Source: Candidatus Omnitrophota bacterium (GTDB lineage: Bacteria; Ratteibacteria; UBA8468; B48-G9; DTJG01). From it: a stretch of DNA of 64,000 bases. The stretch covers positions 16,348-80,347 of the forward strand of contig JAMWBU010000001.1 in the NCBI GenBank assembly GCA_023819255.1, given 5' to 3'. Below the pieces are notes generated by a model. That model was given only the letters and a program-made list of their open reading frames with translations, was not told the DNA's origin and did no database searches. Of the stretch, positions 14,178 through 15,245 are shown in pieces; positions within the stretch are counted from its first letter, which is position 1, and every line of letters begins with the position of its first letter. Position numbers and translations under genes: made by a program.

Positions 14178-15245
14178 TTAAAGGTTCATATTTTCGACAG
14201 GAGGATATATTATCCTGTTTTGAATCACATATGCGGTCCTGATAAATGATGTTTCTGAAAATTGTTTAAGTTGTTGACACAAATTAATCAAATCATTCCT
14301 GTCACTGGTTTTTCCTGTCCGAACAGTGTATACGCCATTAATTTTTTCAACCCTTATATTTTCAAAACCAGAGTTTTCGAGTTTTCTTGCGAATTCAATT
14401 GCTTGTTGTTTTCTATTTTTTCCGAATGAAGCAATCTGAATTGTCAGTATTTTTTGATTGTTTGCTTCTAAATTGGGGGATGATTTTCTGTCATTTATTT
14501 CTGCAAATATTGTTTCTTTTTTCTTTCTTAATTCAATTTCCCTATTAATTATTGGCGGCGATTGTTCAAAAGTTTCAGGTGTGTGAAGATCTGACTGTCT
14601 TAAAATGGAGTTTGTTATTTTTCCTTTTGCTACGATTTCTGTGTCGCCGGTGTCTGTCGCATCCGATATGTTAATTCCATCAGCAAAGTTTTTCGCGCTG
14701 ATTGAAGAGTTAACATAAAGAACAAATTCTTTGTTTTCTCGCTTCAAAATTACCCTGTCGGCAAAAATTCTATAGATTATGTATCCGGATTTTATTTCAT
14801 TTTCTGATTTCACTTCGTCATCGATAATGACCATCGGTTTTTCCTTATCGTATAAAATGCCTGAAATTTTGAAATCAGGCGAAGCAATATAGTCCTGCTT
14901 GAGGATAGATACGGAATCATATGTATTTTTAACGGGTTCCGCACCTGGTTGTCTGAACGGATTTTTGTTTGTTTCAACCGCAGTTTTTTGTTCCTCCTGT
15001 TCTTCTATATTTTTTATGATAGACTGAAGTTTGTTCACAGACATATCAATTTGATGGAAGTCAAAGATCTTATTATTTTCTTCTGACGATGATTCCTTCT
15101 CGTTTATTTCTAATTGGATAGTTTCGCCCTGGCTGATTACAACAGTTTTCGGTTTTGCGGGTTTTAATGCCCTGACAAACGTAAAAATAAAAATCAAAAC
15201 GAGAACAAACAGTATAACAAGAGTTTTCTTATTTTTCTTTTCCAT
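14178..15245 (-). CDS. PilP-position protein: N-terminal TM anchor, a PilP-like core and a C-terminal SPOR peptidoglycan-binding domain
   Basis: Lies between pilO and pilQ. TM helix KKTLVILFVLVLIFIFTF. C-terminus ILTIQIASFGKNRKQQAIEFARKLENSGFENIRVEKINGVYTVRTGKTSDRNDLINL fits the SPOR fold pattern. Confidence 0.45.
   Translation of the reverse strand: MEKKNKKTLVILFVLVLIFIFTFVRALKPAKPKTVVISQGETIQLEINEKESSSEENNKIFDFHQIDMSVNKLQSIIKNIEEQEEQKTAVETNKNPFRQPGAEPVKNTYDSVSILKQDYIASPDFKISGILYDKEKPMVIIDDEVKSENEIKSGYIIYRIFADRVILKRENKEFVLYVNSSISAKNFADGINISDATDTGDTEIVAKGKITNSILRQSDLHTPETFEQSPPIINREIELRKKKETIFAEINDRKSSPNLEANNQKILTIQIASFGKNRKQQAIEFARKLENSGFENIRVEKINGVYTVRTGKTSDRNDLINLCQQLKQFSETSFIRTAYVIQNRIIYPPVENMNL

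Follow-up and report, generated by a model that had tools for sequence, protein, structure and literature searches.

An HR–SPOR protein in the PilP position of a type IV pilus-like gene cluster from Candidatus Omnitrophota

Known connectors and peptidoglycan anchors of secretin systems

How envelope-spanning machines are fixed to the cell wall, and how they are threaded through it, is only partly understood, and what is known comes almost entirely from Proteobacteria. The HR domain, a two-sheet β-sandwich, is common to GspC, GspB, and PilP, and every characterized example binds the N0 domain of its secretin (PMC9239104). Herein, a protein of 355 residues is described that combines an HR domain with a SPOR domain and is encoded in a type IV pilus-like gene cluster of a Candidatus Omnitrophota bacterium (assembly GCA_023819255.1, contig JAMWBU010000001.1, positions 16,348 to 80,347). 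This stretch of 64,000 nucleotides is called the window, and positions are counted from its first nucleotide. The protein is likely to connect the inner-membrane platform of a type IVa-like pilus machine to its secretin, a task that falls to PilP in type IVa pili and to GspC/GspB in type II secretion, and, in addition, to bind peptidoglycan via its SPOR domain.

Among the described systems, GspB/OutB of the Dickeya dadantii type II secretion system (T2SS) is the closest characterized analog. It contains a transmembrane (TM) segment, an HR domain that binds the N0 domain of OutD, and, at its C terminus, an extension that is held to peptidoglycan (PDB 4WFW; PMC9239104), and this attachment was later shown to be covalent (PMC12274547). 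GspB/OutB contains no SPOR domain; its extension is cross-linked or covalently attached, whereas the SPOR domain of the Omnitrophota protein presumably binds noncovalently. Furthermore, GspB/OutB works with a pilotin or GspA in a T2SS that contains a distinct GspC as well, while no second HR protein was found in the present pilMNO–secretin operon. PilP of type IVa pili (Pseudomonas, Neisseria, and Myxococcus; PDB 2LC4/2Y4X, 2IVW/4AV2, and 3JC8) is a lipoprotein of approximately 170 to 180 residues in which nothing follows the HR domain. GspC of T2SSs (PDB 3OSS, 2LNV, and 7OIO) adds an accessory C-terminal PDZ domain or coiled coil to its TM segment and HR domain; this module serves contacts with the substrate or the secretin instead of peptidoglycan, and the partners of GspC are GspL and GspM. 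The present protein does not follow this layout.

Peptidoglycan-binding modules are found at other places of secretin systems, namely as AMIN domains of PilQ, as an N-terminal SPOR domain on the Legionella secretin LspD itself (PMC9239104, PMC6617341), as LysM domains of TsaP and FimV, and as the PF01471 domain of GspA/ExeA. All follow the same logic of tying or localizing the secretin machine, and AMIN, SPOR, and LysM domains all recognize denuded glycans (PMC5285504). In the present protein, by contrast, the carrier of the module is the putative inner-membrane connector rather than the secretin or a distinct protein of the ring or ATPase type. Outside of secretin systems, FtsN, DedD, and DamX resemble it by a short cytoplasmic N terminus, a single TM segment, a long linker, and a C-terminal SPOR domain—Foldseek indeed matches FtsN and DedD—but they contain no HR domain, function in the divisome, and are not encoded in pilus operons.

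The principle of a peptidoglycan-holding HR connector is hence already known from OutB, as is the shuffling of peptidoglycan modules among the parts of secretin systems. The original prediction had presented a PilP–SPOR fusion as a different solution to peptidoglycan anchoring. This is fair for type IV pili and needs qualifying beyond them because tethering by an HR protein is known for the T2SS (GspB/OutB) and a SPOR domain for LspD. In the full texts searched, including work on secretins of Omnitrophota and on pili of Ratteibacteria, a SPOR domain on a protein of the PilP or GspC type is nowhere described; an apparent match in PMC12475490 was discarded because it concerned the word spore. 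A SPOR domain on a pilus connector is probably a new way of tying a pilus machine to the cell wall.

Architecture of the HR–SPOR protein

The open reading frame (ORF) is located between pilO and the secretin gene, as predicted, and is read from the minus strand, which the prediction had left unstated (Table 1). Its start codon is backed by a GGAG Shine–Dalgarno sequence 9 nt upstream, adjoining the stop codon of the PilO-like ORF, and by the N-terminal sequence MEKKNKK, which is kept in homologs. The gene is spaced by 4 nt from the PilO-like stop and ends 14 nt before the ATG of the secretin ORF. A chance ORF or a wrong strand assignment was rejected since the plus-strand frame is full of stop codons and the minus-strand ORF is conserved at 30 to 100% identity; the ORF is therefore taken as real.

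The protein consists of a TM anchor, a weakly conserved segment, a helix, the HR domain, a variable linker, the SPOR domain, and a conserved tail. Conservation is modular, with mean pairwise identities of 0.58 for the TM segment (19 homologs), 0.58 for the HR domain, 0.52 for the SPOR domain, and only 0.15 for the linker, whose length varies from 50 to 87 residues. The N terminus, MEKKNKKTLVILFVLVLIFIFTFVRALKP, contains no Cys and no lipobox and thereby differs from the lipoprotein PilP. It harbors the single hydrophobic stretch of the protein (residues 8–24), which AlphaFold2 (AF2) models as a helix spanning residues 6 to 26 with predicted local distance difference test (pLDDT) values of 69 to 88 in this block. 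The bitopic character that had been predicted is borne out by this single stretch and the missing lipobox. The periplasmic helix that follows ends in a [KR][DN]PF motif, in which P96 is nearly invariant beside the invariant F97; the consensus RDPF also occurs in short relatives consisting only of TM segment and HR domain. Helix and motif are a candidate contact site for PilN/PilO.

The protein carries a real SPOR domain. The PF05036 profile matches residues 267 to 334 with 32.2 bits (gathering cut-off 21; E = 1.3e-7) and all 11 close homologs at E ≤ 1 (best 4.6e-9). Eight of nine divergent members score above the cut-off with up to 52.9 bits, the ninth (P0020) reaching 19.4 and thus remaining below 21. 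The AF2 model shows the β-α-β-β-α-β order of the fold, with strands at residues 267–274, 298–302, 305–313, and 334–337 and helices at 279–291 and 316–326 (pLDDT approximately 76–78). The top Foldseek matches of this region in the PDB are CwlC (1x60), DedD (6ztg), FtsN (1uta), and RlpA (6i05/6i09), with target-normalized template modeling scores of 0.60 to 0.68. By sequence, the region on its own yields only a weak CwlC match among chance matches in the PDB (E = 1.4), so that the structural comparison is needed. Such weak pairwise matches are expected since SPOR domains are in general less than 20% identical to one another (PMC6895207).

The first strand of the domain, ILTIQIASF, aligns with strand β1 of CwlC, LYKVQIGAF. 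Within its Q-x-x-S-F stretch, Q270 is present in all of 19 sequences reaching down to 30% identity, and S273 and F274 are found in at least 90% of them. The β1 Gln is the single residue that is highly conserved among SPOR domains and contacts the glycan (Q270 in RlpA, Q251 in FtsN, and Q351 in DamX), and the small residue three positions further contacts the glycan via its backbone (PMC6895207). R298 and R309 are likewise invariant and are candidates for the basic patch of SPOR domains described in the same work.

The SPOR domain had been predicted to comprise the last approximately 70 residues. The domain itself is supported by the profile score, the AF2 model, and Foldseek alike; it is not literally terminal because a conserved tail of about 18 residues comes after it. 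This tail, with the pattern A..I..RI[IV][YF]PP, extends beyond the SPOR model. In the 19 sequences, I345 never varies and A338 and R344 are kept in at least 90%; the close set shows no variation at R344, P348, and P349 either. The tail has a pairwise identity of 0.40 and a low pLDDT. The RI[IV][YF]PP motif might be an extra docking site for the secretin or PilO.

For the HR domain, the profile matches are consistent but stay below threshold. The T2SSB profile (PF16537) matches the protein with 15.2 bits, below its cut-off of 28.4, over profile positions 2 to 58 of 60. The same profile matches all 11 members at E ≤ 1 (best 4.2e-5) and 49 of the 69 short relatives (best 2.5e-7). Y4YQ_C shows a subthreshold match to the region in nine of 11 members. 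When the PDB sequences are searched with a profile of the short relatives, GspC and GspB are matched (4.6e-4 to 8.5e-3). The full-family profile was discarded for this purpose, its only PDB matches being chance ones to the RNA polymerase subunit RPB12. No second ORF with an HR or SPOR domain was found in the window by family-specific hidden Markov models (HMMs).

Distribution and gene order

When 1.84 billion representative proteins were searched exhaustively with a profile, 267 matches were obtained at E ≤ 0.001, of which only 13 remain at E ≤ 1e-30. The nearest relatives are proteins from metagenome-assembled genomes (MAGs) labeled Candidatus Omnitrophica/Omnitrophota, Candidatus Ratteibacteria, and candidate division TA06. 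HR and SPOR domains occur together in 23 of 158 gathered proteins, some of which bear a second SPOR domain or continue into an additional C-terminal region, whereas 69 of the 158 show only the HR domain and are mostly 140 to 190 residues long with a TM segment. On an enlarged protein set, a rerun gave 33 proteins with both domains among 134 with an HR domain. The nearest HR neighbors of SPOR-bearing proteins mostly carry a SPOR domain too, which fits a history in which the fusion arose once or a few times and then diverged into about five subclades.

The gene order is strictly kept. In all 17 loci that carry the fusion—13 of close relatives, three of divergent subclades (P0017, P0042, and P0031), and the window—the gene is flanked by pilM-pilN-pilO on one side and by the secretin gene on the other and occupies the place of pilP in a pilMNOPQ operon, across about five subclades. 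The pilM, pilN, and pilO genes of the inner-membrane alignment complex (15250..17377) are found in this order in all related loci. Variation is seen at the C terminus: P0016, P0017, and P0031 contain two SPOR domains, and P0036, P0042, and P0163 approximately 140 extra C-terminal residues, with P0017, P0042, and P0031 still occupying the slot between pilO and the secretin gene.

The most informative relative is the locus L014 of an Omnitrophota MAG. Its slot holds a TM–HR protein of 171 residues without a SPOR domain, which is 34% identical over residues 1 to 176, and a PilT-like ATPase is encoded next to PilB. Since this shorter protein keeps the same slot, the SPOR domain is an accessory addition to a bitopic PilP equivalent. 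The short TM–HR group as a whole is mixed: the idea that all its members are PilP-slot proteins was dropped because the three that were checked (P0196, P0182, and P0119) form GspA–GspB-like pairs, following an AAA_22 ATPase and sometimes lying beside T2SS genes. This pairing underlines the kinship with GspB. In these pairs (loci L015 to L017), the TM–HR relative begins with MSII.DALKKA, and the preceding ATPase comprises 265 to 272 residues, too few for the usual periplasmic peptidoglycan-binding region of GspA. The L015 pair adjoins a T2SS-like gene set, and a separate small SPOR protein is encoded approximately 2 to 3 kb away in L015 and L017.

The secretin encoded downstream (Table 1) gives no AMIN match at E ≤ 1, which answers the question raised with the prediction of whether PilQ lacks AMIN domains here. 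None of the related secretins with precomputed Pfam matches shows an AMIN domain, the secretin of L018 being without any recorded match. An N0-like region directly follows the signal peptide. The L014 secretin is short (435 residues) and, by inspection, likewise shows N0-like sequence right after its signal peptide and no sign of AMIN. A SPOR domain on the connector as strict compensation for an AMIN-less secretin was rejected since L014 shows neither. The periplasmic region of the window secretin contains a low-complexity insert rich in Gly, Thr, and Ser, GTARAGTGNASGTTGSTGSSTAGTTGTTTGTTGSSG, at residues ~222 to 262, before the second Secretin_N-type match.

Assignment and alternatives

By position and fold, the protein is a PilP equivalent because it shares the HR fold with PilP and characterized HR domains bind N0; it is not one by family membership. 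Of the designation as PilP, the position and the fold thus stand, whereas the match to PF04351 and the lipid anchor are missing and a TM anchor, an additional linker, and the SPOR domain are found instead. Judged by anchor type and sequence, the protein is closer to GspB/GspC than to PilP. It shares the predicted combination of a single TM segment plus a periplasmic HR domain with GspB, but its gene adjoins those of PilO and the secretin and not gspA or the gene of a GspS pilotin in a T2SS.

Several observations weigh against a pilus connector that is held to peptidoglycan. PF04351 gives no match at E ≤ 1 in the protein and 10 close homologs and none at E ≤ 0.01 in 69 short and 10 divergent relatives, and the T2SSB and T2SSC matches both stay below the Pfam cut-offs. 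The AF2 models derive from shallow alignments of 10 to 11 sequences, with a pLDDT of 55 at full length and 70 to 90 in the domains. Basic residues lie on both sides of the hydrophobic helix, so that charge leaves the topology undecided, and this helix may belong to a signal peptide that is cleaved between VRA and L instead of serving as an anchor. The N0 assignment of the secretin comes from a weak STN match (residues 56–86, 12.7 bits). With the PilT of L014 as query, only PilB was matched in the window and no PilT was found there, so that a retraction force is hypothetical for this machine. Finally, SPOR anchoring is not obligatory for such machines, and another peptidoglycan binder may act from elsewhere, since L014 has neither a SPOR domain on its connector nor an AMIN domain on its secretin.

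The alternative that survives best, although it is considered unlikely, takes the protein as a GspB/GspC component of a T2SS-like (endopilus) system instead of a surface pilus; the cluster would then secrete proteins, and the protein would be a factor for secretin assembly and scaffolding attached to peptidoglycan like GspB/OutB. Both sequence and structure place the HR domain closer to GspC/GspB than to PilP, and IMG names one family member PulC; however, the operon encodes separate PilM, PilN, and PilO rather than GspL and GspM. The secretin matches the TIGR models of both GspD and PilQ below their cut-offs and GspD slightly better, yet the locus contains a PilB with an MshEN domain and two major-pilin-like genes of 130 residues, and no T2SSK or GspC-PDZ is present in the operon. 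The missing PilT in the window would fit a T2SS, whereas the sister cluster L014 encodes a PilT-like ATPase beside PilB. Lastly, some short relatives adjoin GspA-like AAA ATPases and T2SS genes, but neither a GspA nor a pilotin gene is adjacent to the present gene. In such a T2SS-like system, the HR–N0 contact and peptidoglycan binding would be the same mechanism.

Still less probable is a SPOR domain that is a degenerate or repurposed RNP-like module and does not bind peptidoglycan, serving, for example, a protein–protein interaction, with the protein being a long PilP/GspC equivalent. GspC proteins commonly bear a C-terminal module unrelated to peptidoglycan, either a PDZ domain or a coiled coil. 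The conserved extra tail and the weak single-sequence match to solved SPOR domains would agree with such a module, as would W283 and R285 of FtsN, which are not conserved as such when the domain is aligned by eye to the FtsN sequence. On the other hand, the HMM exceeds its curated cut-off in the protein and in all divergent members but P0020, and weak pairwise matches are normal for this family. The β1 Gln is invariant, and the basic patch (PMC6895207) could be provided by R298 and R309, which are invariant as well.

Least credible is a division or cell-wall protein of the FtsN/DedD/DamX type that happens to be lodged in a pil operon, its link to the secretin being secondary: the short basic N terminus, the single TM segment, the long linker, and the C-terminal SPOR domain are those of bitopic division proteins, all characterized SPOR proteins act in division or morphogenesis (PMC6895207), and NCBIfam returns only weak RlpA-type matches over the SPOR region, but division proteins of this type contain no other globular domain, whereas the HR domain is here as conserved as the SPOR domain, the gene is fixed in the pilO–secretin slot of every locus with tight spacing, and the SPOR-less L014 ortholog keeps that slot.

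Proposed mechanism and implications

The steps of binding given in the following are all inferred, in distinction to the architecture, folds, conservation, and gene order, which the sequences and models show. As a pilus connector, the protein would be anchored in the inner membrane by its N-terminal helix and, together with the periplasmic helix and the DPF segment, would associate with PilN/PilO. Its HR domain would engage the secretin's N0 domain, as expected from its fold and from the behavior of characterized HR domains. The flexible linker of 50 to 87 residues would allow the SPOR domain to reach the peptidoglycan layer, where it would bind glycan strands devoid of stem peptides, as suggested by its family and by the conserved glycan-contacting Gln. 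The outcome would be a tether of one covalent polypeptide chain from the inner membrane via the secretin to the cell wall that stabilizes the machine against pilus forces.

The SPOR domain may also direct the assembly of the machine to septa and new poles because denuded glycans are enriched there. In Pseudomonas aeruginosa, this role belongs to PilQ, whose AMIN domains recruit type IVa pili to septal peptidoglycan by way of PilP (PMC5285504). More tentatively, the SPOR domain on the PilP equivalent could pre-position and anchor the PilMNO platform and the secretin at division sites and new poles by reading glycans denuded by septal amidases. If true, the AMIN-on-PilQ strategy of Proteobacteria would have been reinvented on the inner-membrane connector, and the family would clearly exemplify a SPOR protein with a primary task outside of cell division or morphogenesis.

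The HR–SPOR family points to a peptidoglycan module that can sit on a type IV pilus connector, mirroring GspB/OutB with an off-the-shelf SPOR domain and extending the known uses of SPOR domains beyond the divisome. Natural comparators are the SPOR-less protein of L014 and the double-SPOR proteins P0016, P0017, and P0031. The family further suggests that a bitopic HR protein resembling GspB/GspC takes the role of PilP in Omnitrophota and Ratteibacteria. This has consequences for the annotation of pilus and secretion systems in candidate phyla since the respective genes are now labeled "SPOR domain-containing protein" or "hypothetical" by NCBI and, in the one case mentioned, "PulC" by IMG.

Other features of the window

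Table 1 Features of the HR–SPOR protein, of the surrounding gene cluster, and of the GspA–GspB-like pairs in other loci (positions refer to the window unless a locus is given)
Feature	Position	Strand	Basis or remark
Whole gene, TM–HR–linker–SPOR protein in the PilP slot	14178..15245	minus	ORF list and translation, 355 aa
Short basic N terminus (MEKKNKK) and single hydrophobic helix, read as signal anchor, aa 1–27	15165..15245	minus	Hydrophobic run, AF2 helix, no lipobox Cys
Conserved periplasmic helix ending in [KR][DN]PF, aa 61–98	14952..15065	minus	AF2 helix 63–85; F97 invariant
HR domain, six-stranded β-sandwich of PilP/GspC/GspB type, predicted secretin N0 binder, aa 113–180	14706..14909	minus	
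Variable, probably disordered linker, aa 181–262	14460..14705	minus	pLDDT <50; identity 0.15
SPOR domain, predicted to bind peptidoglycan glycan strands, aa 263–337	14235..14459	minus	PF05036, AF2 fold, Foldseek
Conserved C-terminal tail A..I..RI[IV][YF]PP, aa 338–355, beyond the SPOR model	14181..14234	minus	Conservation
Secretin, 567 aa: signal peptide, N0-like region, two Secretin_N, secretin domain	12460..14163	minus	PF00263 136 bits, PF03958 87.8 bits
pilM	16370–17377	minus	PF11104 (PilM_2) 137 bits
pilN	15780–16373	minus	PF05137 28.8 bits
pilO-like	15250–15798	minus	PF04350 20 bits, just under cut-off 22
PilB, MshEN domain	21383–23065	minus	
PilC	20153–21379	minus	
Two major-pilin-like genes, ~130 aa	17842–18234 and 17406–17795	minus	
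602-aa protein, polytopic N-terminal half and C-terminal TPR repeats	18348–20156	plus	Between pilC and the pilins
Two minor pilins	12119–12463 and 11649–12194	minus	
DUF7305 protein, 432 aa, pilin-like hydrophobic N terminus	10351–11649	minus	
BNR/sialidase-like protein	9218–10270	minus	Closes the pil cluster after the DUF7305 protein
LysM coiled-coil lipoprotein	3044–3868	plus	LysM 61.6 bits at aa 232–274; LAGC lipobox
GspA–GspB-like pairs	L015 5170–6495, L016 5207–6471, L017 5193–6477		AAA_22/AAA_16 ATPase, then short TM–HR relative

The two tandem pilins share 111 of 129 aligned residues (86% identity), their C-terminal halves being almost the same, and relatives carry one or two copies; this suggests a recent duplication or gene conversion. 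Wherever the locus of a relative includes the interval between pilC and the pilins, the polytopic TPR protein is encoded there. Some of its copies show weak matches to PMT_2 (GT-C glycosyltransferase), which makes it a candidate pilin glycosyltransferase. At the other end of the cluster, the order of the DUF7305 and BNR/sialidase-like genes is kept in relatives, and the pair may represent a tip-adhesin or PilY1-like module.

The LysM coiled-coil lipoprotein next to pilD, to which the original prediction had also pointed, is confirmed by its LysM score and its lipobox. Its gene directly follows TonB_2/TolA-like, TolB-like PD40, and Pal-like OmpA genes (321–3040), that is, the slot of CpoB/YbgF in Tol–Pal operons. 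Being preceded by TolB and Pal, it is probably a Tol–Pal-associated peptidoglycan binder and not an equivalent of TsaP/FimV. In the sequence ATGA, its stop codon and the ATG of pilD, the prepilin peptidase gene (3865–4668), overlap, a curious coupling.

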